64,000 bases of DNA, taken from the sequence record PZ027503.1. One strand, 5' to 3'. The notes under the pieces are model-generated. The model had not been told where the DNA came from, searched no databases, and saw only the letters and a list, made by a program, of their open reading frames with translations. The DNA comes from a phage. The position numbers and the translations under genes are program-made. Positions 2,388 to 47,486 of the stretch are shown here, in pieces; within the stretch, counting starts at the first letter, position 1, and each line of letters opens with the position of its first letter.

Positions 2388-2781
2388 TGCTTTTGATAAT
2401 CAGGTTGACGGTGATCACTACACAAAAATGGCAATGCAACCTATTGAACTAGCTTATTTGGTTGGTGGCACACCTTGTTTTTGTAAATTGGCAAAATATG
2501 CAACACGTATTAAAGGTGAACGTCAGATTAACCTAGATAAAGCTATTCATTGTATTGAACTAGAAAGAACCCTTATGCAAAATAACACGTATATGGTTCG
2601 TGAAAATTATCCATCTATGACAAATGCAGCTAAACATGATCAAGCTATGCTTCTTATTGATTTCTTCACAAAAGATCCTTTAATACGAGTAGCACTGAAA
2701 CACATGTATAACTCTTCTTATGTAGATGCAATCGAAGCTATTAAACAACTTAAGGAACGTATTAGTGGCGAGCAATACTAA
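2380..2781 (+). CDS. DUF3310-like phage protein
   Basis: GDHY...IELAYLVGG...KLAKYATRIKG pattern recalled for DUF3310; start overlaps upstream stop. Confidence 0.45.
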   Translation: MSNAFDNQVDGDHYTKMAMQPIELAYLVGGTPCFCKLAKYATRIKGERQINLDKAIHCIELERTLMQNNTYMVRENYPSMTNAAKHDQAMLLIDFFTKDPLIRVALKHMYNSSYVDAIEAIKQLKERISGEQY

Positions 2782-2870
2782 ACAATATGGAGCAGGAGAA
2801 GTTTATAAAATATTCAACCGAAAAGGTGATAAACTTTTACTAACTTTGACTATTCCAGAAACAATGTGCA

Positions 2871-2899
2871 AGGCGGGGTTAGACCGCCTTTTGTTTTTT
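2871..2899 (+). terminator. intrinsic terminator
   Basis: AGGCGG-ggttaga-CCGCCT hairpin followed by TTTGTTTTTT. Confidence 0.5.
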
Positions 2900-2948
2900 A
2901 AACACAATATCCCACCAGGGGAATATACAGCTAAAAAGGTGAGCAATA

Positions 2949-3524
2949 TTGGCAGGTGAACCAAAAATAATGTGGGGTGAAGGAACACCCTGGAAAACAC
3001 AAGCTGAATTTTATACTTATCTTAGGGGATGTTTTAGAAAAGCATGGATGAGACACCCTAATAAAATTAAGGTTATCAATGCAAGGCGTTTTAAAGTTGA
3101 TCGAGTAGATAAAGACGGCAATGTAATGATAGACAAGAAAACTGGAAAACCAAAACAAGTTTGGAATTGTGAGTGCGAAATATGTGGACATAGGGGAGGA
3201 ATGAAAGACTTCCAAGTGGATCATATTCACGCAGCAAAACAACTTCAATGTTTTGATGATATTCCTCTTTTTGTTTTCCGTTTGATCTATGTGAAAGAAG
3301 AAGATTTGCGAATGGTTTGTAAATTGTGCAACTCTATTCTTGCTTATGCAGACAAGCAAGGCATATCTTTTGAAGAAGCAAAAGCTGAAAAAGAAGCGAT
3401 AGCTTTGTGTAGAGCTAAGAAAGATAAGGCATGGCTGAAGAAGCGTAAAATAGAACCTGAAAGCACAGTAGCAAAACGCCGTAAACAAATAGTCAAAATC
3501 CTATTGCAGGAAATTGAAAGTTAG
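2949..3524 (+). CDS. HNH endonuclease-like protein
   Basis: CECEICGH...DFQVDHIHAAK resembles HNH motif; TTG start after AAGGTG, alternative ATG at 2970. Confidence 0.4.
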   Translation: MAGEPKIMWGEGTPWKTQAEFYTYLRGCFRKAWMRHPNKIKVINARRFKVDRVDKDGNVMIDKKTGKPKQVWNCECEICGHRGGMKDFQVDHIHAAKQLQCFDDIPLFVFRLIYVKEEDLRMVCKLCNSILAYADKQGISFEEAKAEKEAIALCRAKKDKAWLKKRKIEPESTVAKRRKQIVKILLQEIES

Positions 3525-3561
3525 TATAAGATAACTATACTAAAAAGAGAGAGGAGGTTTT

Positions 3562-4170
3562 ATGCAGATAGTATGTGATTGGGATTTAGTTGTGGCTCCG
3601 TTAGATGTTGCTTGGTTAGAATGGTTGAATAAGATTAGTGGCCTTGGTGTTAAAATCGACACATTCACAAAAAATGCAGATTACGATCTTACCAACTATT
3701 TTCCTGGTTTCAGGGAAGAGTTCAACATAGATCCTTACGGATTTCTGGATAATCCTCATCTCTACGATACAATGGGTTTTGTTCCAGGTATGCCAGATTT
3801 CTTAAAGTATGTTTCAAGGAAAGGTGGCAATCTTTTGATCGCAAGTGTGACAAAAGGTGGTCACTTAAGTTCTAAACATAAACATGTTTTAAGAACATTG
3901 GACACGATTGATTTTAGCAAAGGATCTGGTAACGGCTTTTTTGCTACAAAAGAAAAATATTTATTGCCTTGTGATATAGCCATAGATGACAGGGCTGATA
4001 ACCTACTATATTTTCCAGATGAAGTGGTTAAAATATATTTTAATACGCCTTATAAAGATAACCATCTAGAAGAACTAAAGAAAAAACCAAATGTTGTGAT
4101 CACAGGTTTAGAAGATCAGTGGCTAACATGTTTGGATGTTTTTAACACTTTGAACAATTTTAAAAACTAA
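3562..4170 (+). CDS. HAD-superfamily phosphatase (possible 5'(3')-deoxyribonucleotidase)
   Basis: N-terminal CDWDLV (DxDxV-like), later IASVT, K, and IDDRADN motifs in HAD order; GAGGAGG RBS. Confidence 0.4.
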   Translation: MQIVCDWDLVVAPLDVAWLEWLNKISGLGVKIDTFTKNADYDLTNYFPGFREEFNIDPYGFLDNPHLYDTMGFVPGMPDFLKYVSRKGGNLLIASVTKGGHLSSKHKHVLRTLDTIDFSKGSGNGFFATKEKYLLPCDIAIDDRADNLLYFPDEVVKIYFNTPYKDNHLEELKKKPNVVITGLEDQWLTCLDVFNTLNNFKN

Positions 4171-4179: not shown

Positions 4180-5178
4180 ATGACAAAACAGATTTCGGCT
4201 AGTATTATTGCACATTCCATCACTGAAGACGGAAAAGAGATTGTAACTTTCGAACTTGAATATCCACGTATTATTCATTCAGAACTGATGACTCACCGCC
4301 TGTTCAGTCGTAATGCTGCTTCTAGCCGTGCTATACCTGTTAAAACACTGATCGAAATGGTTCGAAATCAGCCTGCTCGTCCTTATCGTTTTGGGGCTAA
4401 CCAACCTGGTATGCAGGACAAAGGTGTTGATCATGACGCTCTTATTGATGCAGGTTATACTGCTCAAGAGTGGTGGGATCTTGCCGCGCTTAGTGCAGCA
4501 CGTTTTGCAGAAGAATTCTCTTTGGCAGGGTACCACAAACAAGTTGCAAACCGTCTTCTGGAACCTTTCCAACGAATTAAAACAGTTCTGACAGCAACAG
4601 AATATGAAAATTTCTGGTGGCTACGTGATGACAAAGAAGCCGATCCTACTATCGAAGCTTTGGCTAAAGAGATGCACAAAGAGTATGAAGAATCTACACC
4701 AGAAGTGCTGAAACCAGGGCAATGGCACACACCTTATGTAGACCATTTCTATGATACTATTGGCACAGAAGGTGACGATCATTTTGTTTTTGGTGGATAC
4801 TACGTTCAAGATGAATCTGGAGAAGTCGTTGTGCTTACTTTGGAAGAAGCCAAAGCTATTTCAGCTTCGTGTTGTGCACAGGTTAGCTATCGTCGTTTGA
4901 ATGCAACTAAAGATAAAGCTTTAGATATCTATGGTCGTTTGCTGACTGGGCGCAAGGTTCATGCTTCTCCGTTTGAACATCAAGCCACTCCAATGCAAGA
5001 AACATACGAACAATATGGAGAGAACTGTTTTGAAGATTTGTTTATCAATGCTCCTTGGGATTTTAACTCTTGGGAACCAGGTATTACCCATGTAGATCGT
5101 AATGGTAAGTTTTGGTCTGGCAATTTCAAAGGCTGGATTCAACATCGTCAACTTTTAACAAATCATACTAAATGGTGA
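4180..5178 (+). CDS. thyX: flavin-dependent thymidylate synthase (ThyX family)
   Basis: THRLFSRNAASSRA matches the ThyX RHR...S...S.R signature; AAGGAGAAAAA RBS. Confidence 0.7.
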   Translation: MTKQISASIIAHSITEDGKEIVTFELEYPRIIHSELMTHRLFSRNAASSRAIPVKTLIEMVRNQPARPYRFGANQPGMQDKGVDHDALIDAGYTAQEWWDLAALSAARFAEEFSLAGYHKQVANRLLEPFQRIKTVLTATEYENFWWLRDDKEADPTIEALAKEMHKEYEESTPEVLKPGQWHTPYVDHFYDTIGTEGDDHFVFGGYYVQDESGEVVVLTLEEAKAISASCCAQVSYRRLNATKDKALDIYGRLLTGRKVHASPFEHQATPMQETYEQYGENCFEDLFINAPWDFNSWEPGITHVDRNGKFWSGNFKGWIQHRQLLTNHTKW

Positions 5179-5276: not shown

Positions 5277-5687
5277 ATGTCATTAGTAAATACTACAACT
5301 TGGGCTACCGTAAGCATGTCTACTGTAATGTCTACCCCTATCTGGAAACTAGAATCAAATAAACACAATGGCAATATCCCACACGAGAAACAAAATGCTG
5401 TTATTAGAGCGTCGCTTGTAATGCTGGGTATGGCTGAAGATTCACACTATTCTGTTGAGCGTAATGTGAATATCCGAAGCAATAACGATAAGCGGGTAGT
5501 GTTTGCAAATACAACGCTTTTCACTTTCCCTGTTTCACCTAATTGTGGTTTTAAACGAATCTACCAAGAAAATGATATTTTTCATTTTGGTGATGAAGAA
5601 TTTACAGGTTGGGGTGCGTCACATATTAAGATGGATGATTTCGGTAACTCTTATGATCCTGCGAAAGCAGATGATACTAATCAATGA
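5277..5687 (+). CDS. hypothetical protein
   Basis: GAAGGAG RBS before ATG at 5277; 5' UTR hairpin GGGAGG/CCTCCC. Confidence 0.5.
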   Translation: MSLVNTTTWATVSMSTVMSTPIWKLESNKHNGNIPHEKQNAVIRASLVMLGMAEDSHYSVERNVNIRSNNDKRVVFANTTLFTFPVSPNCGFKRIYQENDIFHFGDEEFTGWGASHIKMDDFGNSYDPAKADDTNQ

Positions 5688-5695
5688 GAGGGACA

Positions 5696-5938
5696 ATGAC
5701 TGATAATAAATATGAAGGCTGTGAAATCGAAGTCTATTTTGATGAAACTGTTGGTTGTAATGTAACTGTAATTCTAGACACTTCAAAACGTTTATCTCCT
5801 AAAAGACAAGAAGCAGACCGTCGAGCAAAAGCAAAAGGGTTTGATGACATAACTCATTTTGAAGGTTTTCTATATGCTAATGGACTTTTTAATGAAATGA
5901 AGTTTGGTTATGATGTAGATGTTTTGAATATGCATTAA
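5696..5938 (+). CDS. hypothetical protein
   Basis: ORF with GAGAGGG RBS; start chosen at ATG 5696. Confidence 0.45.
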   Translation: MTDNKYEGCEIEVYFDETVGCNVTVILDTSKRLSPKRQEADRRAKAKGFDDITHFEGFLYANGLFNEMKFGYDVDVLNMH

Positions 5939-5954
5939 TAATAGGGAGGAGAAG

Positions 5955-8195
5955 TTGATTCGTTTTGTAACTAAATCTAACGGTAAGACAGAGGAGTTTA
6001 ATCCAGAAAAACTTCGCAAATGGTCTGAATTTGCAGCAGGTAAACTAAACTGGTCTGAAATTGAATTAGAAGCTGTGAAGCGGTGTTATGACGGTGTGTC
6101 TACACGTGATCTGCATAAAGCAATGATTGCAGCGTGTATTGACAAGAAAACACAAGCTTACAGTGATATGGCAGGAAGACTTCTTCTTGGTATGATTTAC
6201 AAACAGGCTCATGGGGGATACCACAGTATCCCTTCACTGAATACCTTTTATCATGATATGGTAGAACGTGGACATTGGGCTAAAATGGATTATACTGATG
6301 AAGAGATCAAAGAAATAGGTAAGATTGTAAAGCATAATAAAAATCTAACTTATGGTTATTCTGTTTTACGTCAGATGGTAGATAAATATCTTATTCGAGA
6401 TGCAGTAAACGATGTGGTGCATGAGTCTCCACAGTTTCTTTTCATTGGTATCGCAATGAAGGTTATGGAGATCCAACCAAAAGAACGCCGTATAGAAGAT
6501 ATTAAAAAACTTTATACTTATGTTAGCGATCTTAAGATTAATCTGCCATCGCCGTATCTGACAACTCTACGAACTCCAATCAAAGGAAGTGCGTCTTGTT
6601 GTTTATTCCGTGCAGACGATACGGCAGAATCTTTAGCCATTGCTAATTACTTAGCTCATGAGTATACGTTGAATAACGCAGGTATTGGTGTTAATCTTCA
6701 AACTCGTGCCACAGGTCAAGGTGTTAAGAATAATCGTATTATTCATGGTGGTCTTCTTCCGTATCTGAAATGGATGGAAGATAGTGTTGGAGCTTCGAAG
6801 CAAGCAAGCCGTGGAGGTAGTGCTACAGTTACTTTTACCATACTTGAACCAGACTTCGACGATCTGATTCGACTGAAGAATCCAACAACACCTATAGATA
6901 AACGAGTAGACAAACTGGATTATTCTATTGTTGTTAACCGTTCGTTCTTGCGTCGAGCAGCAAAAAACGAAGATTGGATGTTAGTTAGTTGTGATGATGC
7001 TCCTGAACTTTATGAAGCTTTGTATAAAAGTGAAGAAGAGTTTGATGCAGTTTATGACAAAGTAAGCCGTCGCCGCATTAAGAAAAAATTTGTTAAGGCT
7101 CGTGATCTTCTGACAGAGATTATTGTTCAACGTGCAGAAACAGGACGTATTTACATGTTCTTTGCTGACAACGTTAACAACCATACACCTTTCCTGGATA
7201 CGGTGTATCAATCAAACCTGTGTCAAGAGATCTTCTTACCAACTAAAGCTTTCCACAGTATGCCGGATCTCTTTACTGGTGAGAATACAGAAGATCAAGA
7301 ATTGGCTTTATGCTTCTTATCTTCTATTGTTGCTGGTCGTGTCTTACCTGAAGAATATGAGGATGTTGCATACTACACTGTATTGACAATTGACAACGTT
7401 ATTGAAACAATGGATTATCCATTTAAACATAACGAAATAACTGCTAAAGCACGTAGATCTATTGGTGTAGGCATTACAAACTTAGCGCATTACTTGGCAA
7501 GTAATTTTGTAAATTATTCAGATGCTTATGCTAAAAAATTAATGCATGAACTTGCAGAACGTCATTACTTCTGGTTGGCAAAAGCCTCTCTGCGTCTGGC
7601 TAAGGAAAAAGGTAATGCGGAATGGATTGATAAGACCAAATGGCCTCAAGGTTGGCTACCAATTGACACTTATGCTAAAACAGTAGATAGTATCGGTAAT
7701 TTTGATCTTAAAATGGACTGGGAAGGCTTACGTGCTGAAATCATTGAACAAGGTGGTATCCGTAACAGTGTCTTGGCTGCTATCGCACCTAATGAGTCCA
7801 GCAGTTTGGTAAGCAATACTACTAACTCTCTGTATCCTGTTCGTGATACTATTATGTATAAACAAAGTCAGAAAGGTAGTGTATTATTTATTGTTCCAGA
7901 CTACGAAAAACTGAAAATGTTCTACCAGTCCGCCTGGGACACTCCGGCTAAAGACCTTGCAGAAATGTATGGTATCTTTACCAAGTTTACGGACCAAGGA
8001 ATTTCTTGTGATTCTTGGCTAGATTATTCTAAATTGGTAGGTGGACGTTTATCAGTGAAAGCTGAGATGCAGTTTATTCTGAATTTTGCTAGACTGGGTG
8101 GTAAGTCGTTGTATTACCTTAATAGTAGAACAAAATCAGCAGACTCTTTAGCACAAGAAGATTCTGATGGTGGTTGTGAAGCTTGCAAGATGTGA
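5955..8195 (+). CDS. nrdA: ribonucleoside-diphosphate reductase large subunit (class Ia, NrdA)
   Basis: 746 aa; N-terminal ATP-cone (VTKSNGKTEEFNPEKL); length and overall pattern typical of NrdA; TTG start after GGGAGGAG. Confidence 0.9.
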   Translation: MIRFVTKSNGKTEEFNPEKLRKWSEFAAGKLNWSEIELEAVKRCYDGVSTRDLHKAMIAACIDKKTQAYSDMAGRLLLGMIYKQAHGGYHSIPSLNTFYHDMVERGHWAKMDYTDEEIKEIGKIVKHNKNLTYGYSVLRQMVDKYLIRDAVNDVVHESPQFLFIGIAMKVMEIQPKERRIEDIKKLYTYVSDLKINLPSPYLTTLRTPIKGSASCCLFRADDTAESLAIANYLAHEYTLNNAGIGVNLQTRATGQGVKNNRIIHGGLLPYLKWMEDSVGASKQASRGGSATVTFTILEPDFDDLIRLKNPTTPIDKRVDKLDYSIVVNRSFLRRAAKNEDWMLVSCDDAPELYEALYKSEEEFDAVYDKVSRRRIKKKFVKARDLLTEIIVQRAETGRIYMFFADNVNNHTPFLDTVYQSNLCQEIFLPTKAFHSMPDLFTGENTEDQELALCFLSSIVAGRVLPEEYEDVAYYTVLTIDNVIETMDYPFKHNEITAKARRSIGVGITNLAHYLASNFVNYSDAYAKKLMHELAERHYFWLAKASLRLAKEKGNAEWIDKTKWPQGWLPIDTYAKTVDSIGNFDLKMDWEGLRAEIIEQGGIRNSVLAAIAPNESSSLVSNTTNSLYPVRDTIMYKQSQKGSVLFIVPDYEKLKMFYQSAWDTPAKDLAEMYGIFTKFTDQGISCDSWLDYSKLVGGRLSVKAEMQFILNFARLGGKSLYYLNSRTKSADSLAQEDSDGGCEACKM

Positions 8196-8203
8196 TGAAA
8201 CTA

Positions 8204-8222
8204 GGGGCTTCGGCCCCTTTTT
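8204..8222 (+). terminator. intrinsic terminator
   Basis: GGGGC-ttcg-GCCCC hairpin followed by TTTTT. Confidence 0.6.
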
Positions 8223-8239: not shown

Positions 8240-9325
8240 ATGGCAGCAATTAATTTACACAACGAAGTTTACAAAACAGGAAAATATCCAGTATTTTTGG
8301 GGGAGCAATTAGGGATCTTTGATTCTGTTAACGTAACTTATCCAGAAATGCACAAACTCTACAAACTTCAAAAAGCACAAGATTGGGATGAAAACGAAGT
8401 TAACTTGGATCAGACACGTAAAGATTTCGTAGCTTGTTCTAAAAACAACTATGATGTTATGATTAAAAACTTATCGTTCCAATGGGAAAATGATTCTCTT
8501 GCAAAATCAATCATCACTTTGTTCTCTCCATTCTTGAGTAACAATGAAGCCTGTGCTATGATGATGAAGCAGAGTGAAATGGAAGTTCTCCATGCGTTAA
8601 CGTATTCTGAAATAATCCGTCAATGTACTCCAGATCCAATTGAAGTCATCAATCAGATTATGATTAATGATAAAATTTTCAATCGTATGGGTATCATTGC
8701 TGATATCATGGGTCAGTTGGAAGAAGCTGGTCATAAGTATGCTCTAGGATTGATTGAAACTAACGATGAACTTCGATTGCTGATTCTTAAAGGGATGGTA
8801 GCCCTGATTGGATTAGAAGGTATTCAGTTTATATCTTCCTTCTCTGCTACTTTTGCTATGGCAGAACAACAATTGTTTGTTGGGGCTTGTAAGCTGATCC
8901 AGAAAATTATGCTAGATGAAATCTTGCATGTTAAGATGGATTATGCTGTAATTGATGCATTGATGCATGACCCAATTTGGCGTAAAATTTACGAAGACAA
9001 TATTGAAGAGTTGACTTTGATCCTCGACACTGTTGTTGAACAAGAGGAACAGTGGTGTGACTACCTGTTTAGTGAAGGTCGTTTTATTGTAGGTCTTAAC
9101 GCCGAATTGTCTAAACAGTGGGTTTATTTCAATGCTGCTCCTATTTATCGTCGATTGAAAATGAAAGCCAAGTTTAAAGCACCTAAACATAGTCCTTTAG
9201 CTTGGATGGAAAAATGGTTGAATCCTGATTTGATTCAGTCAGCAGCCCAAGAGATTCAGTTAACTAATTACAAATTGAATTCAGCTAACAAAGATCTCTC
9301 TGATGATGAGGAGCTTGACTTCTAA
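8240..9325 (+). CDS. nrdB: ribonucleoside-diphosphate reductase small subunit (NrdB)
   Basis: 361 aa directly after nrdA; di-iron ligand pattern (MEVLHALTYSE) and length typical of NrdB. Confidence 0.85.
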   Translation: MAAINLHNEVYKTGKYPVFLGEQLGIFDSVNVTYPEMHKLYKLQKAQDWDENEVNLDQTRKDFVACSKNNYDVMIKNLSFQWENDSLAKSIITLFSPFLSNNEACAMMMKQSEMEVLHALTYSEIIRQCTPDPIEVINQIMINDKIFNRMGIIADIMGQLEEAGHKYALGLIETNDELRLLILKGMVALIGLEGIQFISSFSATFAMAEQQLFVGACKLIQKIMLDEILHVKMDYAVIDALMHDPIWRKIYEDNIEELTLILDTVVEQEEQWCDYLFSEGRFIVGLNAELSKQWVYFNAAPIYRRLKMKAKFKAPKHSPLAWMEKWLNPDLIQSAAQEIQLTNYKLNSANKDLSDDEELDF

Positions 9326-9680: not shown

Positions 9681-9834
9681 AAAAGAGTATGTCCGTATTC
9701 CACGAGAATTAACAGATCACATTGCAGAAGCAATAGCTTTCGAAGCTAGATGTTGTGGAGGCATTGCTTACGATATTTATGAAGCAATTATTAAAGCTGC
9801 TCAAGAAGAGGAGGAGATGAAAAATGGGTATTGA
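9670..9834 (+). CDS. hypothetical protein
   Basis: ORF in track; start set at ATG 9670 (track begins at TTG 9649). Confidence 0.35.
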   Translation: MENEKEYVRIPRELTDHIAEAIAFEARCCGGIAYDIYEAIIKAAQEEEEMKNGY

Positions 9835-10150
9835 TATCGAATGGCGTATGTTACAGGGTGCACCTTTTAATAAGTGGGAAGAGGCTGTAGGAGAAGATCC
9901 TAGAATTGAAGAAGAATTTGACGGAGATTTTAACTGGTTCTTACAAGAAGGTCTGGACTTAAGTCGCATCTCTCCTTTCTACGATGCTGATGAGTCTTAT
10001 TGCATATATGGTATTTATTTAGAAGGCGGAGAAGGAAGCGTAGCTGTAGATCTTGAGCAATTAAATGAGAATGCAAAAGAAGCCTATGCAGAGCTACTTG
10101 AAAAATATAACATTAAAACGGAAACTATTATTTCTCAACATGTCTGGTAA
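9824..10150 (+). CDS. hypothetical protein
   Basis: ORF in track; acidic protein. Confidence 0.5.
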   Translation: MGIDIEWRMLQGAPFNKWEEAVGEDPRIEEEFDGDFNWFLQEGLDLSRISPFYDADESYCIYGIYLEGGEGSVAVDLEQLNENAKEAYAELLEKYNIKTETIISQHVW

Positions 10151-10159
10151 GGAGAGAAA

Positions 10160-10726
10160 ATGAAAGTAGAAAAAACAAAAATTGAAGGTGCGGTAATTAT
10201 CAAACCAGACGTTTATAAAGATGATCGTGGTTTCTTTTTAGAAACATATAATGAACAAAAATACGAAGATATTATTGGTAGACAAACTTTCGTTCAAGAT
10301 AACATGTCTAAATCAAACTTCGGTGTTTTGCGAGGAATGCACTTCCAAACAAACAACCCGCAAGGTAAGCTTGTTCGTTGTGTAAGTGGAGAAGTATTGG
10401 ATTTCGCTGTAGATTTACGTAAAGATAGTCCAACTTACGGTGCTTGGGACGGTGTTGTTCTTCGTGCACGACACCATACGCAGTTTTGGCTTCCACCTGG
10501 TTTGGCACATGGTTTTATAGTTTTGAGTATGGATGCTATCTTTGAATACAAATGCACAACTCCATACGACCCTTCTAGCGAACAAAGTTTACGTTGGGAT
10601 GATCCTGATATAGGGATCGATTGGGGATTTGATATGATTTTTGATGAAGATTTTAAACCTATTTTATCAACAAAAGATGCAATGGCTAAATCTTTTCAAC
10701 AGCTACGTAGTGAGGGTGTATGCTAA
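10160..10726 (+). CDS. rmlC: dTDP-4-dehydrorhamnose 3,5-epimerase-like cupin (RmlC-like)
   Basis: DDRGFFLETY, LRGMHFQ, KLVRCVSGEVLDFAVDLRKDSPTYG match RmlC hallmark motifs; 188 aa. Confidence 0.75.
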   Translation: MKVEKTKIEGAVIIKPDVYKDDRGFFLETYNEQKYEDIIGRQTFVQDNMSKSNFGVLRGMHFQTNNPQGKLVRCVSGEVLDFAVDLRKDSPTYGAWDGVVLRARHHTQFWLPPGLAHGFIVLSMDAIFEYKCTTPYDPSSEQSLRWDDPDIGIDWGFDMIFDEDFKPILSTKDAMAKSFQQLRSEGVC

Positions 10727-11562
10727 CATATCTGGTATTAGGTGGTAATGGACAACTGGGACAAGCTTTACGTAAAGTGGTTCCTTCGAATGTATCTTTA
10801 ATTTATCCTAAAGAACGTGTAGATATTACAAATTTTGAAGCTGTGCGAAACGCTATTGTTGAAGATTATGTAGACGGTGTTATTAACTGTGCTGCTTATA
10901 CGGCTGTAGATAAAGCAGAACATGATTTTGCTACTGCTTTGGCTGTTAATGCGTATGGACCTGCAAATATTGCGGCAGTGTGCAGCAAACTTAAAATTGA
11001 TTTTGTGCATATTTCTACAGATTATATTTTTAATTATTCTCATCCTATTTTTGAAGATACTACACCTAACCCAATAAACAATTATGGGTATACGAAAGAA
11101 CTTGGTGAAAAAATGGTGCGAGGAGTTAACCCAAATGCATATATTATTCGAACAGCCTCGGTATATAGCGAATTTGGAAATAACTTTCTAAAAACCATGT
11201 TGTCTCGCTATAATGATGGACAACGTGATTTTATTGTTGTTGCTGATCAGTTCTCTTGTCCAACATATGCTCCAGATTTAGCAGAAGCTATTTTTGAAGT
11301 ATTAAAAACAGGTTGGTCAAGGTCTGTTAAGACTTACCATTTTGCAGGAAGCCATCTTATTTCTTGGGCGGAGTTTGCGGAAAAGATCTTGACACAGATG
11401 CCAGAACCTGTTAAGATATCGGCGGTATCAGCTTCAACCTATAATGCTCCAGCAGCACGTCCGGTGAAGTCACAACTAGTAACCAGTCACTATCTTACAA
11501 AATCAGATTTAAATAAAGGTATTGAACAGTCTTTAGCAGTATTACTTAATAAGGAGAGGTAA
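10720..11562 (+). CDS. rmlD: dTDP-4-dehydrorhamnose reductase-like (RmlD-like) NAD(P)-binding protein
   Basis: N-terminal LVLGGNGQLGQAL Rossmann motif, ISTDYIF; 280 aa; overlaps rmlC-like stop. Confidence 0.7.
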   Translation: MLTYLVLGGNGQLGQALRKVVPSNVSLIYPKERVDITNFEAVRNAIVEDYVDGVINCAAYTAVDKAEHDFATALAVNAYGPANIAAVCSKLKIDFVHISTDYIFNYSHPIFEDTTPNPINNYGYTKELGEKMVRGVNPNAYIIRTASVYSEFGNNFLKTMLSRYNDGQRDFIVVADQFSCPTYAPDLAEAIFEVLKTGWSRSVKTYHFAGSHLISWAEFAEKILTQMPEPVKISAVSASTYNAPAARPVKSQLVTSHYLTKSDLNKGIEQSLAVLLNKER

Positions 11563-11822
11563 TGGAATTTGTAATTTTTGGTAAACCTAACTGTCAATTT
11601 TGCGAAATGTCAAAACAACTATTAACCATGCGCAATAAACAGTTTGAATATTTAAGTCTTGATCAAGACTATGATTTAGAATCAATGACTAAAACAGTTG
11701 TTGATCTTACCGGAGTTCCTCCACGCACATTTCCACAAATTCTGTCTGAAGTGAACGGGGAGGTAACATACGTAGGCGGTTTTACCGAACTGCGTGATCT
11801 CATGGCTCAAATTGCGGAGTAA
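11562..11822 (+). CDS. nrdC: glutaredoxin/thioredoxin-like protein (NrdC-like)
   Basis: CQFC active-site pair near N-terminus, 86 aa, resembles T4 NrdC. Confidence 0.6.
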   Translation: MEFVIFGKPNCQFCEMSKQLLTMRNKQFEYLSLDQDYDLESMTKTVVDLTGVPPRTFPQILSEVNGEVTYVGGFTELRDLMAQIAE

Positions 11823-11827
11823 CAATT

Positions 11828-11977
11828 ATGAAAAGTAAACAGAAACGTAAGATCTTTTCTCGTGCTTTGGCAAATGAGCTGAAGTCCAACATAAAGAAAA
11901 CGAAACCAAAACGTGAAACTTCTCCAGAACATCTGTTGTTTAACGAGTTGGATCACGGAGTAGGAGACGACGAATAG
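11828..11977 (+). CDS. small basic protein (49 aa)
   Basis: Below track cutoff; ATG 11828 to TAG 11975-11977. Confidence 0.3.
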   Translation: MKSKQKRKIFSRALANELKSNIKKTKPKRETSPEHLLFNELDHGVGDDE

Positions 11978-11984
11978 GAAGTAA

Positions 11985-12485
11985 ATGGCTAAAGTAGTAG
12001 ATGAGTTTGATATGCTACGAGTCGATGAAGGACTGAAGCTTACTGTTTATCAAGACCATCTTGGTTATTGGACAGTCGGCATAGGACACCTTCTGACTAA
12101 AATAAAAGATAAAGCAAAGGCTATTCAAATCTTAGATAATCTTCTTGGTCGTAAGACTAATGGAGTTATCACAGAAAAAGAAGCCCGTCAAATCTTTGCT
12201 GACGATGTTGCAAAAGTGAAGAGAGACATAAAAAACAGTACTATCTTATCACCAATCTATGATAAGGTTAGTGATACTCGTAAATTGGGAATAATTAACA
12301 TGGTTTTCCAGTTGGGGTTAAAAGGTGCTGAAGGGTTTCAAAATAGCTTGACTTTAATCAGCAATGCATATTATACTCAAGCAGGTAAAAACATGCGTAA
12401 AAGCCGATGGTATAGCCAGACGCCAAACCGTGCTGAACGAGTAATTAAAGTTCTGACTTCTGGAACTTTAGATGCTTACAACTAA
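11985..12485 (+). CDS. T4-type lysozyme (glycoside hydrolase family 24 endolysin)
   Basis: MLRVDEGLKLTVYQDHLGYWTVGIGHLL and KSRWYSQTPNRAERVIKVLTSGTLDAY closely parallel T4 lysozyme. Confidence 0.9.
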   Translation: MAKVVDEFDMLRVDEGLKLTVYQDHLGYWTVGIGHLLTKIKDKAKAIQILDNLLGRKTNGVITEKEARQIFADDVAKVKRDIKNSTILSPIYDKVSDTRKLGIINMVFQLGLKGAEGFQNSLTLISNAYYTQAGKNMRKSRWYSQTPNRAERVIKVLTSGTLDAYN

Positions 12486-12489
12486 TAAA

Positions 12490-12503
12490 GGGGCTTCGGC
12501 CCC
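12490..12503 (+). terminator. terminator-like hairpin (weak U-run)
   Basis: GGGGC-ttcg-GCCCC then TTCTAAAA. Confidence 0.35.
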
Positions 12504-12522
12504 TTCTAAAAGGAGTGCTACT

Positions 12523-13281
12523 ATGGGAAATAAAACCGCAGCTAAAACACAACGGCAGAAACTGGCTAATTCAGCAAAGATTGAAAGCCGTTATGCAGCA
12601 AAAGCGGTAGGTAATGACGATTACCGTTTAGATGAATTTATGCCTGAAGGGGACCAAAATAAGATTGTTCAAAGCATGATCTGGAATGATCTGACTGTTG
12701 TAAATGCTCCGGCAGGGACTGGTAAAACATCTGTTGCTTTATGGAAAGCTTTGCAGATGCTTCGTTCAGGAGACTTCCGTAAACTACTTTTTATCAAGAA
12801 CCCTACTGAAGTCGGAGATGACCAGATTGGTTTCTTGTCTGGGGATAAAACAGATAAACTAGCAGCACACTATGAATCTACAAAACGTATTTTCCAGCAA
12901 TTCATGACAGCCAACAAATTGGAAAACGATATTGGATCAGGTAAGATCGAATTGAATATTCCTAACTATTTGTTGGGGGCTACCCTGGATAATACAATCG
13001 TCATTATTGACGAAGCACAACTTATGTCAACAGAAACACTTAAACTTCTTATTGAACGTGCAGGTATTAATACGCATGTTATTGTATTAGGCGATGTTCG
13101 CCAGACATATGCAATTAAAAAACGTAGCAATGGTCTGCATCAAATTTTGGAACTTTTATATCCAGAAAATGAAGAAGGTGTTCGTGAGCCAATTGTAGAT
13201 TTTATTGGATACGTTGAACTGACAACGGACGATAATAAACGTGGACGTTTGTCTAAACTGATTACTGAAGTGTTTATTTAA
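12523..13281 (+). CDS. phoH: PhoH-like ATPase
   Basis: Walker A NAPAGTGKT, Walker B-like IVIIDEAQ; start set at ATG 12523 after AAAAGGAG. Confidence 0.85.
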   Translation: MGNKTAAKTQRQKLANSAKIESRYAAKAVGNDDYRLDEFMPEGDQNKIVQSMIWNDLTVVNAPAGTGKTSVALWKALQMLRSGDFRKLLFIKNPTEVGDDQIGFLSGDKTDKLAAHYESTKRIFQQFMTANKLENDIGSGKIELNIPNYLLGATLDNTIVIIDEAQLMSTETLKLLIERAGINTHVIVLGDVRQTYAIKKRSNGLHQILELLYPENEEGVREPIVDFIGYVELTTDDNKRGRLSKLITEVFI

Positions 13282-13316
13282 TAACATGGCAGGGAAGCCA
13301 TTTATAAGGAGGATTG

Positions 13317-13817
13317 ATGGGTGTAGCAACAATAGCTATCGGAAGAAGCGGTATAGATGAGTGCTATCAAACGGGACTCGTAAAACCTAACGAATTTCGT
13401 CAAATTTGTGTAAACCATATTGAAAAAGAGATTGCTCTTACTTTAGAGAATATGACCCTCCGAGATAAACTGGAAATGTTTAAATGTTGGTGTCTAGGAG
13501 AAGATTGGCTTTTAAACCATTTTCAAGAACTTTCTGATAGTAAAGAAAGCTTGTTTGATTGTATAATAGGAATAGCTGGCTCCGATCCTAGCCTTCTGCA
13601 CATAACAGAAGAAGAGGCGAAGTTACTGTTCTTAAGTAATTTGTTTAATAAGAAAGCACTGCTTGTTCGTGATTGCAGTGATCTTCTTAATAACCCGCTC
13701 GCAACGTCTGATCAAATTTTTGTTGACAAAGAGACACTACGTGCGATAGAATACATCTGCAAATATGTGAATGGCGGGAAAGCGGTTCTTAAAACGTTAA
13801 CAGAGGAGGAAGAATAG
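13317..13817 (+). CDS. hypothetical protein
   Basis: ORF in track; AAGGAGGA RBS. Confidence 0.5.
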   Translation: MGVATIAIGRSGIDECYQTGLVKPNEFRQICVNHIEKEIALTLENMTLRDKLEMFKCWCLGEDWLLNHFQELSDSKESLFDCIIGIAGSDPSLLHITEEEAKLLFLSNLFNKKALLVRDCSDLLNNPLATSDQIFVDKETLRAIEYICKYVNGGKAVLKTLTEEEE

Positions 13818-14554: not shown

Positions 14555-14989
14555 ATGTTACAAGTTCCTGCTAAGTTTGTTGAAGGCGCTATCCACTCTT
14601 ACCGTCAAACATGTAAGAGGGCAAGAAACTGTTTAGATGGTCTGGTGGCAAAAACCTATACTGTTGAAAAGAAGAAACGTTGGTTTGGCAAAGATGTTTA
14701 CGAAGTTAATATTTTTGGTGAACATAAACTAAACCATGATACTCCTGAAAACATGTTAGAAATATTTCTAAGAGATGACAAAATATCTCCTATGGATTAC
14801 CAACTTTTAAAATTTTATGATTCTTCTTTGGCTATTGATAAGTTTGTTGAAGATATTCTGTCTAGAAAAACAGATAAAAACACTTATCCTCTAGAAGCTG
14901 ATCAAATAGGATTATTAAACGAGATTTCATCCTTTAAAGAGTTGGATAATATTACAAAAGAGGAGATTTTAGATGGCATTAGATTATGA
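14555..14989 (+). CDS. hypothetical protein
   Basis: ORF in track; GGAGA RBS. Confidence 0.5.
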   Translation: MLQVPAKFVEGAIHSYRQTCKRARNCLDGLVAKTYTVEKKKRWFGKDVYEVNIFGEHKLNHDTPENMLEIFLRDDKISPMDYQLLKFYDSSLAIDKFVEDILSRKTDKNTYPLEADQIGLLNEISSFKELDNITKEEILDGIRL

Positions 14990-15482
14990 TCGCCCAACGA
15001 GCGATTATTATCCGACACCGCAAAAAGCAATCAATAGTTTGTTTAGTGTTATAGATTTCAAAAATCTAAAGGAAGAAGGTTGGGTTTTTGCAGAACCTTG
15101 CAGAGGTGAAGCTGAAGCGATTTATCGCCATTTTCCTGAAGGTTCGGAATATTGCGAACTTGAAGAAGGTAAAGATTATTTTAGTCATGAATGGGAAAAT
15201 CGTCCCGACATTATAATCACAAACCCTCCATTTAAGTTAGCAATGGAGTTCTTGGAAAAGAGCTTAAAAGAGGCGGATGTTTGTATTTATCTTCTTCGGT
15301 TGGGCTTCTTGGAGTCAAAGAAACGACGAGAGTTCCATCAAAAGAATCCACCAACAAACCTTATAGTCCTTTCAGAACGGCCTTCGTTTGTTGCAGGTGG
15401 AACAGATAAGACAGCATACGCTTGGTATGTATACGACCCAAAGAATCGTTTGGGCCTCTCTCAACCATTTTATTTTGTTTAA
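14973..15482 (+). CDS. putative N6-adenine DNA methyltransferase (small phage Dam-like)
   Basis: DYYPTP near N-terminus and IIITNPPF motif; 169 aa. Confidence 0.45.
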   Translation: MALDYDRPTSDYYPTPQKAINSLFSVIDFKNLKEEGWVFAEPCRGEAEAIYRHFPEGSEYCELEEGKDYFSHEWENRPDIIITNPPFKLAMEFLEKSLKEADVCIYLLRLGFLESKKRREFHQKNPPTNLIVLSERPSFVAGGTDKTAYAWYVYDPKNRLGLSQPFYFV

Positions 15483-18156: not shown

Positions 18157-18738
18157 ATGGCAGAACTGTTCTATACGGGAGTTGGAAGTAGAGACATATC
18201 CGAAGAAGAGTGGGCTTTGATGGTAGGCATAGGGAAATGGCTTTCAAACCTTGGGTTTAAATTAAGGTCTGGGAAGGCAGAGGGTAGTGATTCTGCTTTT
18301 GAAACAGGTGTCCAAGAGTCTGAAAATCCTACTAACAAGGAGATTTATGTTCCTTGGGAAAATTTCAAAGGTAATCAGATTCCAGGGGATGTTATTGTTC
18401 TTGCAAAACCAGATACAATGAACTATGCTATCTCTGTGCAATGGATCAAAGATGTTCACCCAGCCTATGAAAAGCTTAAGCAGGGTGCTAGAAAATTGCA
18501 CCAACGTAATGTGCATCAAGTGTTAGGTAGAGATTTGGAGAATCCTGCTCCATCATGTTTCTTGTTGGCTTGTGCTAATACTGATAAACATGGAGATGCA
18601 AAAGGTGGAACAGCTACGGCTTGGAAGATAGCTAAAGCCAATAATGTTCCTTGTTTAAACATTCGTGGGAAAACAAAACAAGAGATTTACGATTTTCTAC
18701 GACCTTTGGTAATGAGGGCAATAACAAGTGATTCCTAA
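18157..18738 (+). CDS. SLOG-superfamily (DprA/LOG-like) Rossmann-fold protein
   Basis: YTGVGSR...RSGKAEGSDSAFETG...KGGTATAWKIA resembles DprA/LOG glycine-rich motifs; start at ATG 18157 after GAGGTGA. Confidence 0.4.
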   Translation: MAELFYTGVGSRDISEEEWALMVGIGKWLSNLGFKLRSGKAEGSDSAFETGVQESENPTNKEIYVPWENFKGNQIPGDVIVLAKPDTMNYAISVQWIKDVHPAYEKLKQGARKLHQRNVHQVLGRDLENPAPSCFLLACANTDKHGDAKGGTATAWKIAKANNVPCLNIRGKTKQEIYDFLRPLVMRAITSDS

Positions 18739-19240
18739 ACGTAAACGTGGTGAACAAAGAACAAACTTGGCAGAAATCTTAGATTACAACATGGTTAATG
18801 ATGTGACAAAAGAAATTCTGCCTGTTGTAGAAGATATTCTTCAAAGAGGGTTACGATTCTGCTCGGATCGGGTGCATTTCATGTGGACACATAAAAGTGA
18901 CTCCGCTTTGAATTTCTATCCTTTGGATTATACTCTGAACAATACAGAGATGAAAGATATCAACAAATACTTAATGGGATATAAAGATATAACCGAAACC
19001 GTTCTTGGAGAATTGGCAGAAATCTTGGCTAACGATATTCTTAGAAATATTAATAAGGCTCTTGACAGAAGCCCAGCAGGAGTAGTAGTATCTTTTGCTG
19101 TGCCAGATATGGTTAAATATGAGTCTACAATACCTAATAAAGCTTATGCCTTTCTTCGGAGAGACGTTCGTGGAAATGTGTTGGAGATGGAGTCAAACTA
19201 CAAGATTGAGGAGGTTTTATGGCAGAGTTCGGATCAGTAA
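18728..19240 (+). CDS. hypothetical protein
   Basis: ORF in track. Confidence 0.45.
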   Translation: MIPKRKRGEQRTNLAEILDYNMVNDVTKEILPVVEDILQRGLRFCSDRVHFMWTHKSDSALNFYPLDYTLNNTEMKDINKYLMGYKDITETVLGELAEILANDILRNINKALDRSPAGVVVSFAVPDMVKYESTIPNKAYAFLRRDVRGNVLEMESNYKIEEVLWQSSDQ

Positions 19241-19509
19241 CAAGTTTTGAAAGTAACTTCGTTACCGCTTGGGAAGCTTGGGATGAAATGGGTGTTGGGG
19301 AACTTTATTTTTACAATGTAACACTACGTCCAGAGTATGCTTACCTGGTACCAGAAGGAACAGTTCAAATTGGCATGTATCTGTCTTCTCAAGATGGTGT
19401 TGTTCAATTTGAGTTTTATTCAAACACAACGGACAACGAATTTACATATCGTGCATTTCATGTCAACATGTCTTTAGGAGAGGAGAAATTTTATGACGAC
19501 CAAGTTTAA
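19219..19509 (+). CDS. hypothetical protein
   Basis: ORF in track. Confidence 0.45.
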   Translation: MAEFGSVTSFESNFVTAWEAWDEMGVGELYFYNVTLRPEYAYLVPEGTVQIGMYLSSQDGVVQFEFYSNTTDNEFTYRAFHVNMSLGEEKFYDDQV

Positions 19510-19690
19510 AACAGTAGAAGAAGCCGTAAAAGCAGCTTATGAGGCTTTAGCGGAAGCAGAGCAGTTAGCAGATGAGACTGGTAAAGGTTTCCGTTTCTCC
19601 CCTGAATATGGGATGGGTGGCTATTATGATCCAGAAGATGAAAATGAGAATACTGGAACAAATTGGCATCCATCTTCTTTAAGTTGTTAA
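19493..19690 (+). CDS. small acidic protein ending in NWHPSSLSC
   Basis: ORF in track; GGAGAGGAG RBS; C-terminal W-x-SS-x-SC shared with next two small genes. Confidence 0.5.
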   Translation: MTTKFKTVEEAVKAAYEALAEAEQLADETGKGFRFSPEYGMGGYYDPEDENENTGTNWHPSSLSC

Positions 19691-19701
19691 TAGGAGGTAA
19701 A

Positions 19702-19971
19702 GTGGGAATCGAAGATATCAAAGGTTATAAACCGCATACCGATGACAAAATTGGTAAAGTGAATGCTATTAAAGATGCTGAAGTTCGATTAGGATTAATC
19801 TTTGATGCTCTAATGTCTGAATTGTGGGCTGAACTGGATGATTGTGAAGATTTGGAAGAGTCTACCAATATATCCACCCGCCTTGACCAAATTTCAATAG
19901 CAAAGACTAAGTTGAAAGAAGCTTCTATGTGGGCCTGTCGTTCCGTTTTCCAACCAGAGGAGAAATACTAA
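19702..19971 (+). CDS. hypothetical protein
   Basis: ORF in track trimmed to GTG 19702 after TAGGAGG. Confidence 0.4.
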   Translation: MGIEDIKGYKPHTDDKIGKVNAIKDAEVRLGLIFDALMSELWAELDDCEDLEESTNISTRLDQISIAKTKLKEASMWACRSVFQPEEKY

Positions 19972-20189
19972 TGAGTGATCGTAATGTTGAAGAATTAACT
20001 GAAAAAGCCCAAGCTATTATGGCTTTAGTGGACGAACTTACAAAAGAAGCTGAAGATGCTGGTTTTGGTCTTAGTTTAGAAAATGACGCAATCTGTTTTG
20101 AAGATTGGCAATCCTCTTCTTGTTATGGTGAAGGTGATGATGGTTTCGTCGTTAATTCTCAAGGCGTTTGGCACAGTAGTAGCTGTTAA
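19971..20189 (+). CDS. small acidic protein with internal WQSSSC and C-terminal VWHSSSC
   Basis: ATG 19971 after GAGGAGAAA; paralogous N-terminal helix with 19493 gene. Confidence 0.5.
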   Translation: MSDRNVEELTEKAQAIMALVDELTKEAEDAGFGLSLENDAICFEDWQSSSCYGEGDDGFVVNSQGVWHSSSC

Positions 20190-20198
20190 GGAGAGATT

Positions 20199-20471
20199 GT
20201 GGAGTCTGAAGGCGAACTGCTGATAAAAAAGAAAGTTAAAGAGATGGAACAAGCACAAAGAAAGTTTCGTAAGGAGATTGAAGAACTTTGTGAACAGTTT
20301 CAGGAACAAGCTTGGATAGGTGACTACGGTAACGGAGAAACTTATTACCCTACAGGAACGCCAGCCGCAGATCACTATATTGATTTCATTTGTGAAGATT
20401 ATGGTGTAGAGTTGGATGAAAATGGTTTAACCACAAGAGGTGTTTGGATCTCTTCTTCCTCAATGTGTTAG
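20199..20471 (+). CDS. small acidic protein ending in VWISSSSMC
   Basis: GTG start after AAGGAGAG; same C-terminal motif class. Confidence 0.5.
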   Translation: MESEGELLIKKKVKEMEQAQRKFRKEIEELCEQFQEQAWIGDYGNGETYYPTGTPAADHYIDFICEDYGVELDENGLTTRGVWISSSSMC

Positions 20472-20480
20472 TAAATAATA

Positions 20481-20502
20481 ACCCGCTTCGGCGGGTTTTT
20501 TA
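20481..20502 (+). terminator. intrinsic terminator
   Basis: ACCCGC-ttcg-GCGGGT hairpin followed by TTTTTT. Confidence 0.6.
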
Positions 20503-20531
20503 TTGACAGGAATCTGGAAGCTTGATAAACT
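20503..20531 (+). promoter_or_regulatory. sigma70-like promoter
   Basis: TTGACA, 17-bp spacer, TAAACT. Confidence 0.45.
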
Positions 20532-20561
20532 TAACCTATCAACCAATAGAGGAGAAATATT

Positions 20562-21503
20562 ATGGTGTTAATTGGTAGCCGTGCATTACAAATTCATGCT
20601 ATGGACATGGGAAAAGACTTGTATCGCCCTTGTGTAGATTTAGATTACCTGTGTACAGAACAAGAGTGGGAAGAATTATCAAAAATGTTCTCTCAAGATG
20701 AGTTTGTTGAACTTGTAGAACGTAAAGGAAACAAAGGCCATGTCAAAATGATAGCTGGTGCACATTTGGAATACGATATTGCTTCTCAAGGAGATAGCAC
20801 AGAAGCTTTGATTAGTTATTGTGAAGATTCTGATGATGTTCGTCGAACTTACGCTGGACATGTTGTTGCTCCTTTAGATGTGCTCTACCTTCTTAAAATG
20901 AGTCATCGTTTTAAAAAAGATAGTCCTCACTTCTTTAAAACTATGAAAGATATTCATTTCATGCGGTCACTGGGCGCAAAGATCCCAGAAAATCTTAAGA
21001 GTATTTATGAGTTGCGTGAGAAAGAAACATACACTTACTCTCATCCGAACTTAAACGTAAAAAGTAAAGACTTTTTTAAAGGTGATGAGGTTCCGTATGT
21101 TTATGATCATGATTCTATCCATGAAGCAATCGCGGTAATGGATGCTCCGGCATATAAATCTTATATGAAAGATGGAAGTGAAGTTATGACCAGCAAAGAA
21201 AAGTTTTTTGCTCAACCAAAACATGTGCGCCTGTTAGGTGTTTATGAAGAAGCGTGTGTTTTGGCTTTGGAACGTTCACAAATTCCTTTCGGTGGAGAGA
21301 TCGGAGGTCCAACCCCTAAGCAAAGTTTTATAATGGCTTTATCTAAAGTCTGCACATCCATCACTAGTGGTTGGTTTAGGGAATATGCTTGGGAAAACTT
21401 TTATGTTGTTATTAAACTATATGAAAACATGGGCGAAAACGACTATGTTGAACGTTTTAAAGCTAATCAACATGTAGTAAAGCCTTTTGAAGGAGGTTAT
21501 TAA
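20562..21503 (+). CDS. hypothetical protein (possible nucleotidyltransferase-like fold, weak)
   Basis: 313 aa; N-terminal IGSRA...VDLDYL loosely resembles GS...DxD of Pol-beta-type NTases but spacing atypical. Confidence 0.5.
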   Translation: MVLIGSRALQIHAMDMGKDLYRPCVDLDYLCTEQEWEELSKMFSQDEFVELVERKGNKGHVKMIAGAHLEYDIASQGDSTEALISYCEDSDDVRRTYAGHVVAPLDVLYLLKMSHRFKKDSPHFFKTMKDIHFMRSLGAKIPENLKSIYELREKETYTYSHPNLNVKSKDFFKGDEVPYVYDHDSIHEAIAVMDAPAYKSYMKDGSEVMTSKEKFFAQPKHVRLLGVYEEACVLALERSQIPFGGEIGGPTPKQSFIMALSKVCTSITSGWFREYAWENFYVVIKLYENMGENDYVERFKANQHVVKPFEGGY

Positions 21504-21504
21504 T

Positions 21505-21900
21505 ATGTGTGGATATCTTTCAGAAAGTTATTTCAAAGTGACGCATGAGGATTTAGAAAAAGCACGATTGAAACTGACAGCTATTATTGAATACTCTAAT
21601 ACTGTTGATCACAGATTAAAGACTACTAAAGTATCTGTTCCTTGTTGGTTAGGTTTACGGCATAAAATAATGTCTCAACATGACCATGTTGTTCGAGAGA
21701 TGCATGGTTGGTGTTGGTTTCACGATGTGGCTCTGCATTTTGGTTATATTACAGAAGAAGAGCATAGATTCTGTGAACTAACATATCGTATTCCAACCCT
21801 TCACGATTTAGATTTGTGGAAGAAAGCAAACGAGATTTTTCTTACAGAAAGTGATTGGCGTAAAGTTATGGCTTGTCTTGAATGGAGGGGTAATGAGTAA
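21505..21900 (+). CDS. hypothetical protein
   Basis: ORF trimmed to ATG 21505 after GAAGGAGG. Confidence 0.5.
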   Translation: MCGYLSESYFKVTHEDLEKARLKLTAIIEYSNTVDHRLKTTKVSVPCWLGLRHKIMSQHDHVVREMHGWCWFHDVALHFGYITEEEHRFCELTYRIPTLHDLDLWKKANEIFLTESDWRKVMACLEWRGNE

Positions 21901-23229: not shown

Positions 23230-23244
23230 TGCCAGCATCTGAAC

Positions 23245-23276
23245 AAAGCCTCCTGTTTCAGGGGGCTTTTCTTTTA
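23245..23276 (+). terminator. intrinsic terminator
   Basis: AAAGCCTCC...GGGGGCTTT 9-bp stem (one G-U) followed by TCTTTTAT. Confidence 0.5.
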
Positions 23277-23287
23277 TAGGAGGGAAT

Positions 23288-24573: not shown

Positions 24574-24582
24574 ACCACTCAA

Positions 24583-24605
24583 GGGGCTTCGGCCCCTTTC
24601 TTATT
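24583..24605 (+). terminator. intrinsic terminator
   Basis: GGGGC-ttcg-GCCCC followed by TTTCTTATT. Confidence 0.55.
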
Positions 24606-24616
24606 AGGAGAATAAA

Positions 24617-47133: not shown

Positions 47134-47151
47134 TTTACTTTCCTCATTATC

Positions 47152-47169: not shown

Positions 47170-47211
47170 CTACGCATTAAATATAAGTTATCTAAGAGAT
47201 TAGATCAAGGA

Positions 47212-47480: not shown

Positions 47481-47486
47481 TACTTT

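Follow-up and report, generated by a model that had tools for sequence, protein, structure and literature searches.

The synthesis of deoxythymidine diphosphate (dTDP)-L-rhamnose is described in bacteria as the rmlBDAC/rfb pathway, represented below by RfbC and RfbD of Escherichia coli K-12 and by the Salmonella structures 1dzr and 1kbz, and in phages as the cluster rmlB-rmlA-rmlC-rmlD of the phAPEC8-like and phi92-like groups (Phapecoctavirus and Justusliebigvirus). The subject of this analysis is a pair of overlapping genes, rmlC and rmlD, at positions 10160-11562 of a 64,000-nucleotide stretch of phage DNA (sequence record PZ027503.1); this whole stretch is called the window. The two genes are of the same families as the bacterial ones, with the same catalytic residues and predicted chemistry. 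However, they belong to a clade of their own, with 50% identity to K-12 RfbC and 31% identity to RfbD, they lie between nrdB and a glutaredoxin gene and not in an O-antigen cluster, and they are no longer accompanied by rmlA and rmlB. Among cellular RmlC proteins, the nearest (56-60% identity) come from members of Enterobacterales, for example Pectobacterium, Serratia and Klebsiella. The phage cluster is an orthologous locus in the same slot, the rml locus of the window having 98-99% nucleotide identity to phAPEC8, but the window carries a 1,876-bp deletion allele of this cluster that lacks rmlB and rmlA.

The rml genes of Phapecoctavirus have been annotated in GenBank since the sequencing of phAPEC8 in 2012. 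One paper describes the rhamnose pathway as "peculiar" (PMC7552041), another mentions a "putative dTDP glycosylation machinery" (PMC8594841), and a third notes that phage ESCO37 has neither RmlA nor RmlB (PMC10269720). Thus both the genes and the rmlA/rmlB polymorphism are already in the literature, and their identification in the window is a correct re-identification of a known thing. The present analysis adds the exact deletion junction, the frequency with which it occurs, another deletion that arose independently, evidence of selection, a rationale based on complementation by the host, and a link to a portable glycosyltransferase cassette.

Two intact enzymes and a deletion of rmlB and rmlA

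The genes in question and the junction upstream of them are as follows.
10151-10155, plus strand: Shine-Dalgarno box GGAGA containing the junction of the rmlB-rmlA deletion (base-level comparison with phAPEC8)
10160-10726, plus strand: rmlC, dTDP-4-dehydrorhamnose 3,5-epimerase, 188 aa (TIGR01221, PF00908, alignment with 1dzr, catalytic residues)
10720-11562, plus strand: rmlD, dTDP-4-dehydrorhamnose reductase, 280 aa (TIGR01214, PF04321, structures 3sc6, 1vl0 and 1kbz, catalytic residues)

RmlC scores 225.4 bits against the NCBIfam equivalog TIGR01221 (cut-off 155.75), the match covering residues 2-181 of 188, and RmlD scores 238.6 bits against TIGR01214, where the margin over the cut-off of 224.05 is narrow. 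The respective Pfam matches are PF00908 (E 1e-66) and PF04321 (E 1.4e-73). Among the structures in PDB, Salmonella RmlC 1dzr aligns with the phage RmlC over the full length (E 4e-56), and the matches to the mono-epimerases of the same fold, NovW and the 3-epimerase 4hmz, have far lower scores. The solved RmlD structures 3sc6, 1vl0 and 1kbz align with the phage RmlD. Catalytic residues were judged in alignments that included RfbC and RfbD of E. coli K-12 and the proteins of three divergent phages of the subfamily. H61, K70, Y130 and D173 of RmlC are invariant there and line up with 1dzr, the catalytic set of the Salmonella enzyme being H63, K73, Y133 and D170. The NAD(P)H-binding motif GxxGxxG (G8/G11/G14) and the triad T100, Y122, K126 of RmlD are also invariant.

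At the equivalog level, and as judged from sequence, both genes are intact enzymes of the last two steps of dTDP-L-rhamnose synthesis. RmlC is predicted to perform the double epimerisation, at C3 and C5, of dTDP-4-keto-6-deoxy-D-glucose. The activity of the two phage enzymes and the stereochemistry of their product are likewise what we infer from the families and residues just listed. The original prediction of overlapping RmlC-like and RmlD-like genes is borne out by these data, as both pass the equivalog cut-offs with all catalytic residues present, and the profile search placed neither of them in an unrelated subfamily of cupins or short-chain dehydrogenases/reductases. The two genes share 7 nt (ATGCTAA), and the end of rmlD overlaps the start of the glutaredoxin gene by 1 nt (TAATG). 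Through these overlaps the genes are translationally coupled.

The rml region of the window is 98-99.4% identical to that of phAPEC8-like phages (Phapecoctavirus, subfamily Stephanstirmvirinae). However, some of these relatives align as two pieces over 5.08 kb, compared to 3.2 kb in the window. The gene order in phAPEC8 is nrdB, small open reading frames (ORFs), rmlB, rmlA, rmlC, rmlD, the glutaredoxin gene grx, lysozyme, phoH. Compared with it, the window and phage anhysbys lack exactly 1,876 bp, from the start region of rmlB to the start region of rmlC. The left flank of the junction is the region upstream of rmlB, the right flank is the region upstream of rmlC, and GGAGA is common to both. 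Since the breakpoint lies inside this shared Shine-Dalgarno box, rmlC inherits a ribosome-binding site. A 90-nt junction probe found the identical junction in 22 GenBank records, that is, 18 distinct phages after removal of RefSeq duplicates; the deletion allele is present in anhysbys, ZCKP1, ESCO37, nepoznato and Mt1B1_P17. The claim that RmlA and RmlB are absent from the window also stood: tblastn with the phage and K-12 proteins (E<=1e-3) found neither of them in the window, nor in the 149 kb of the complete anhysbys genome, the only signal being the expected paralogy of RmlB and RmlD within the short-chain dehydrogenase/reductase superfamily.

In 48 related GenBank records both rmlB and rmlA are present. 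The slot between nrdB and grx holds rmlBACD not only in phAPEC8, but also in the more distant Phapecoctavirus phiWec179, in the phi92-like Justusliebigvirus PHB05 and in Klebsiella phage 05F01, which is deeply divergent (46% identity in RmlC). This indicates that the four-gene cluster is ancestral to the subfamily and that the two-gene state arose from it by deletion. A separate deletion, of 811 bp, destroys rmlA in Phapecoctavirus DIJ07P2 and leaves rmlC and rmlD intact. Its remnant at 2501-3569 of the DIJ07P2 locus is a truncated rmlB fused to the 3' end of rmlA, forming an ORF of 306 aa with ACT microhomology at the junction.

The two-gene allele occurs on at least three rmlCD haplotype backgrounds interleaved with four-gene phages. 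Thus rmlCD of the window and anhysbys differs by 2-6 nt from that of the four-gene phage BI-EHEC and by 30-34 nt from that of the two-gene phages nepoznato, ESCO37 and Mt1B1_P17. Clonal spread of the two-gene allele from a single origin was considered and rejected, as its at least three rmlCD haplotypes lie among those of four-gene phages. Hence either recombination has spread the allele, or the deletion has arisen more than once at the GGAGA microhomology. ESCO5 and ESCO37 have been documented to recombine in the laboratory (PMC10269720). The halves of the cluster also have separate histories as separate modules, since there is a mosaic boundary between rmlA and rmlC: the nucleotide identity of phAPEC8 and phiWec179 is 88-90% in rmlB and rmlA, 64-67% in rmlC and rmlD, and 76-80% in the flanking genes.

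Selection on rmlC and rmlD and probable supply of the substrate by the host

None of the 16 isolates examined (eight two-gene phages, seven four-gene phages and DIJ07P2) has a disrupted rmlC or rmlD, and the RmlC protein of the window is 100% identical to RmlC of several four-gene phages. Ratios of nonsynonymous to synonymous polymorphism (pN/pS), which are crude, polymorphism-based counts in which recombination blurs the substitutions that post-date the deletion, are as follows.
rmlC: 0.04 in two-gene phages, 0.04 in four-gene phages
rmlD: 0.11 in two-gene phages, 0.17 in four-gene phages
rmlB: gene absent from two-gene phages, 0.10 in four-gene phages
rmlA: gene absent from two-gene phages, 0.13 in four-gene phages

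Thus rmlC and rmlD are under purifying selection in two-gene phages. An obvious alternative is that they are a functionless remnant left over after the loss of rmlBA, as the pathway in this phage is incomplete. However, a remnant would hardly have retained intact ORFs in each of the eight two-gene isolates, an RmlC identical to that of four-gene phages and ratios the same as in the latter, nor would it be expected on at least three haplotype backgrounds or to have been spared by two independent deletions. This explanation is very improbable, and the pseudogene reading was rejected on the selection data.

The substrate of RmlC, dTDP-4-keto-6-deoxy-D-glucose, is made in E. coli by RfbA/RfbB and by their isozymes RffH/RffG from the operon of the enterobacterial common antigen (ECA), in whose pathway it is used by WecE. 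Of 5,426 complete E. coli genomes, 5,309 (98%) contain the rffG-rffH segment of K-12. An rfbC homologue was detected by blastn in 2,199 of the same genomes (~41%), which is a lower bound as divergent alleles are missed by this search. Since rffGH is near-universal and rfbC is less frequent, a phage needing dTDP-L-rhamnose in any E. coli would have to bring RmlC and RmlD. The counts support the view that RmlA and RmlB only add flux, so that rmlBA can be lost and rmlCD cannot. The substrate would thus come from the host, either from RffH/RffG of the ECA pathway in almost all E. coli, or from RfbA/RfbB; RmlC and RmlD would convert this host intermediate into dTDP-L-rhamnose inside the infected cell. 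A two-gene phage would then retain just the pair of steps missing from most E. coli hosts.

Glycosyltransferases and possible uses of dTDP-L-rhamnose

Glycosyltransferases were looked for beyond the window, and relatives were found to have four adjacent genes of this type (gp013-gp016 of anhysbys), approximately 21 kb past the end of the window in anhysbys coordinates. All four belong to glycosyltransferase families in PHROGs, and their Pfam hits are below the gathering thresholds. Nothing usable was obtained when gp013 and gp016 were searched by sequence against PDB, or the four proteins against NCBIfam. The AlphaFold model of gp015 (pLDDT 89) has a GT-A fold with a DDD (DxD) motif, and its best PDB neighbour found by Foldseek is the viral glycosyltransferase A197 of Sulfolobus turreted icosahedral virus (STIV). 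The gp013 model (pLDDT 93), with a fold of the GT-B/GT4-like type, is structurally close to PglA, BshA, MshA, TarM and WaaG, as well as to Gtf3, GtfC and SdgB, which are protein O-glycosyltransferases, and its top 50 structural neighbours include neither a T4 DNA glucosyltransferase nor EarP. The gp015 gene is present in the same records as RmlC, approximately 65 of Phapecoctavirus and 62 of phi92-like and phiWec phages, two-gene phages included.

A prophage of Serratia sp. M24T3 (positions 5589-7670 of its contig) contains a three-gene cassette in the same order, with 37-41% identity, between the lysis genes and the terminase and capsid genes, the latter directly downstream of it. It consists of a small glycosyltransferase, a GT-A-like one and a GT-B/GT4-like one, and in coliphages it has been duplicated to four genes (10294-13438 of the anhysbys locus). 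Other phage homologues of gp015 are confined to the glycosyltransferases of cluster-F mycobacteriophages, which are distant (24-29% identity, E 1e-6 to 1e-7, 52-79% query coverage). These phages resemble the present group in encoding cassettes of several glycosyltransferases, and a passage in PMC11256854, citing Freeman 2023, states that cluster-F phages (Che8) carry glycans on capsid proteins. However, the mycobacteriophages have no rml genes, and the literature searched yielded neither a report of virion glycosylation in Stephanstirmvirinae nor a functional study of phage rml genes. A combination of both functions is known in giant viruses. Mimivirus and chloroviruses have their own nucleotide-rhamnose synthesis and their own glycosyltransferases, and glycosylate their virions; this route is based on uridine diphosphate and eukaryote-like enzymes, operates in hosts of another domain, and involves unrelated proteins.

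A cluster of Ter-type genes lies near the cassette in anhysbys (18262-24838 of the same locus). It encodes TerC, TerD/"tellurite resistance" proteins, a ComF-like phosphoribosyltransferase (PF15610, E 1.7e-41), a Macro domain protein and a HAD hydrolase. Genes for TelA, vWA-TerF and TerD are situated directly upstream of the same cassette in two metagenomic contigs.

It is most likely that dTDP-L-rhamnose serves as the donor for this cassette. The acceptor is probably not DNA; the best guess is a protein, most plausibly a protein of the virion. Taken as a whole, the reading with active RmlC and RmlD, a substrate fed by the host, a product for the phage's own glycosyltransferases and a non-DNA acceptor is the one we favour, by a modest degree. 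The cassette leans towards a protein acceptor, possibly in the virion, although each of the points is weak and a lipid-linked glycan of the envelope is a serious rival. A tentative extension is that Stephanstirmvirinae build a rhamnose glycan on virion proteins from their own dTDP-L-rhamnose with a portable cassette of three to four genes, rmlCD being the host-independent core and rmlBA a dispensable booster.

Several observations weigh against the favoured reading. RmlD is only 14 bits over its cut-off, and the predicted reduction at C4 could yield 6-deoxy-L-talose instead of L-rhamnose. The rfbC frequency is, as said, a minimum. The rml locus and the cassette are approximately 75 kb apart, they also lie apart, with no physical linkage, in the more distant Klebsiella phages 05F01 and KP2025, and the use of rhamnose by the cassette is something we infer. 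No rml genes are seen on the 16.8-kb contig with the Serratia cassette, and thus the cassette has no strict need for phage rml genes; the co-occurrence of the two loci within one clade amounts to one evolutionary event. The structural similarities of the glycosyltransferases are of a generic kind (TM 0.4-0.6), and PglA, WaaG and TarM, enzymes of lipid-linked glycans, are also among the matches. Finally, an early operon of nucleotide metabolism is not an obvious site for virion glycosylation.

The main competitor is remodelling of the host surface, in which dTDP-rhamnose and the phage glycosyltransferases would alter or divert lipid-linked intermediates of the O-antigen, ECA or lipopolysaccharide. 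This could, for example, block superinfection, decrease the loss of progeny on cell debris or, by draining dTDP-4-keto-6-deoxyglucose, starve ECA synthesis. Relatives recognise surface glycans (PMC11990801), the gp013 neighbours PglA, WaaG, TarM and also PimA act on lipid-linked or wall glycans, and RmlC would compete with WecE for one host intermediate in the ECA operon. However, the annotation of anhysbys contains no flippase, polymerase or membrane component of the GtrA/GtrB type, the phage is strictly lytic, and the Serratia prophage cassette is in the late region by the terminase and capsid genes and not in a position typical of lysogenic conversion. A pure drain also fits poorly with the four-gene phages, which raise the flux through the pathway. 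We consider remodelling unlikely, albeit the strongest of the rivals. A role limited to nucleotide pools and regulation is clearly less probable. RmlA is feedback-inhibited by dTDP-L-rhamnose, and the phage could push the host intermediate to this inhibitor and thereby spare deoxythymidine triphosphate (dTTP), with no glycoconjugate formed. The position among nrdAB, thyX, the deoxynucleotidase gene and grx, kept across the subfamily, would agree with this, but the ancestral and majority state includes the dTTP-consuming rmlA and rmlB, which are under purifying selection (see the ratios above), and the rml genes co-occur with the conserved cassette.

About as improbable, and ranked marginally lower, is glycosylation of DNA, that is, rhamnose on hydroxymethylated bases by analogy with the glucosylated hydroxymethylcytosine of T4, as proposed by Olsen et al. 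2020 (PMC7552041). As in T4, where alpha- and beta-glucosyltransferases act together with dCMP hydroxymethylase, this would be a sugar transfer with genes in a nucleotide-metabolism region, here between nrdB and grx. In addition, gp015 has faint similarity to a TET-associated glycosyltransferase family (PF20691, E 1e-3, 37 residues) and to the beta-glucosyl-HMC (hydroxymethylcytosine) alpha-glucosyltransferase (phrog_842, E 6e-6), but both similarities are short and local. Glycosyltransferase folds differ from those of T4, whose alpha- and beta-glucosyltransferases are not among the best PDB hits of the gp013 and gp015 models. No hydroxymethylase or TET/JBP protein is present among the 286 annotated features of anhysbys in RefSeq (an annotation check and not a profile scan of every ORF), and the thymidylate synthase present is ThyX only. 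The DNA of relatives is sensitive to restriction: the phi92-like phages of the sister genus, which have these genes too, are "exceptionally susceptible" to restriction-modification (PMC8594841), and in a collection of phages of avian pathogenic E. coli (APEC), HincII resistance was observed only in ESCO10, ESCO47 and ESCO58, while the genomes cut by this enzyme included those of the Phapecoctavirus members ESCO5, ESCO13, ESCO25 and ESCO37 (PMC10269720). DNA glycosylation is thus disfavoured. The original prediction had left the role open between the surface glycan and modification of DNA or protein; of these, the DNA option has lost ground.

This narrows the question: DNA modification is unlikely, rmlCD is the indispensable half of the pathway, RffG/RffH of the host can supply the missing half, and dTDP-rhamnose is probably consumed by the cassette. 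As two-gene and four-gene phages both occur naturally, they can be combined with E. coli rff and rfb mutants into a ready genetic system for distinguishing glycosylation of the virion from that of the host envelope. Phapecoctavirus and phi92-like phages are common in collections for phage therapy and biocontrol. If their virions do carry a rhamnose glycan, they would be the first glycosylated coliphage virions, and the glycan could have an influence on how stable candidate therapy phages are, how they adsorb or how the immune system recognises them. Interest is modest unless glycosylation of the virion or host is demonstrated.

Neighbouring genes and other features of the window

The genes around rmlC and rmlD are listed below.
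3562-4170: 5'(3')-deoxyribonucleotidase of the NT5C type, HAD superfamily (Pfam, barely over the cut-off)
4180-5178: ThyX (Pfam)
5955-8195: NrdA (Pfam)
8240-9325, plus strand: nrdB, the upstream border of the conserved rml slot (PF00268, E 6.5e-33)
9824-10150, plus strand: conserved hypothetical gene, 108 aa (phrog_15453), directly 5' of rmlC; it precedes rmlB in four-gene relatives
11562-11822, plus strand: glutaredoxin (nrdC-like), coupled to rmlD, the downstream border of the slot (PF00462, E 1.8e-9)
11985-12485: lysozyme (Pfam)
12472-13281: PhoH (Pfam)

The deoxyribonucleotidase gene is directly 5' of thyX and shares the operon of nrdAB. The neighbourhood described in the original prediction is thus supported by Pfam as regards nrdB, glutaredoxin, lysozyme, PhoH, ThyX and the HAD phosphatase. 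This does not extend to the two methyltransferase-like genes, 14973-15482 and 21851-22576, for which Pfam gave nothing at E<=1e-3; the RefSeq record of anhysbys labels their homologues as DNA methyltransferases.

Scans for intrinsic promoters and terminators around the operon gave no enrichment compared to shuffled sequence. Individual candidates from these scans are a strong GC hairpin with a T-run in the gap between nrdA and nrdB (8203-8218, plus strand) and a palindromic GC hairpin just 3' of the lysozyme gene (12487-12506). Together they flank a unit of nrdB, rmlC, rmlD, grx and lysozyme.

A number of records similar to the window in the rml region (94-99% identity to E. coli Phapecoctavirus), among them MG065650.1, OP562383.1, OR584014.1 and MH252123.1, are labelled as phages of Campylobacter, Acinetobacter, Pseudomonas or Klebsiella. 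Host labels of such records may be unreliable, or reflect contamination.

Rfam and tRNA scans of the window gave no matches. Among the minus-strand genes at 47100-55500 there are at least nine copies of an intergenic repeat of 47-88 nt. On the gene strand it consists of TTGACAA, a spacer of approximately 17 nt, TAAGATGTATCAC, and then a GC-rich hairpin (GGCGGCAATGGTGCCGCC). This repeat looks like a family of early promoters of the sigma-70 type, each with a conserved 5' stem-loop.

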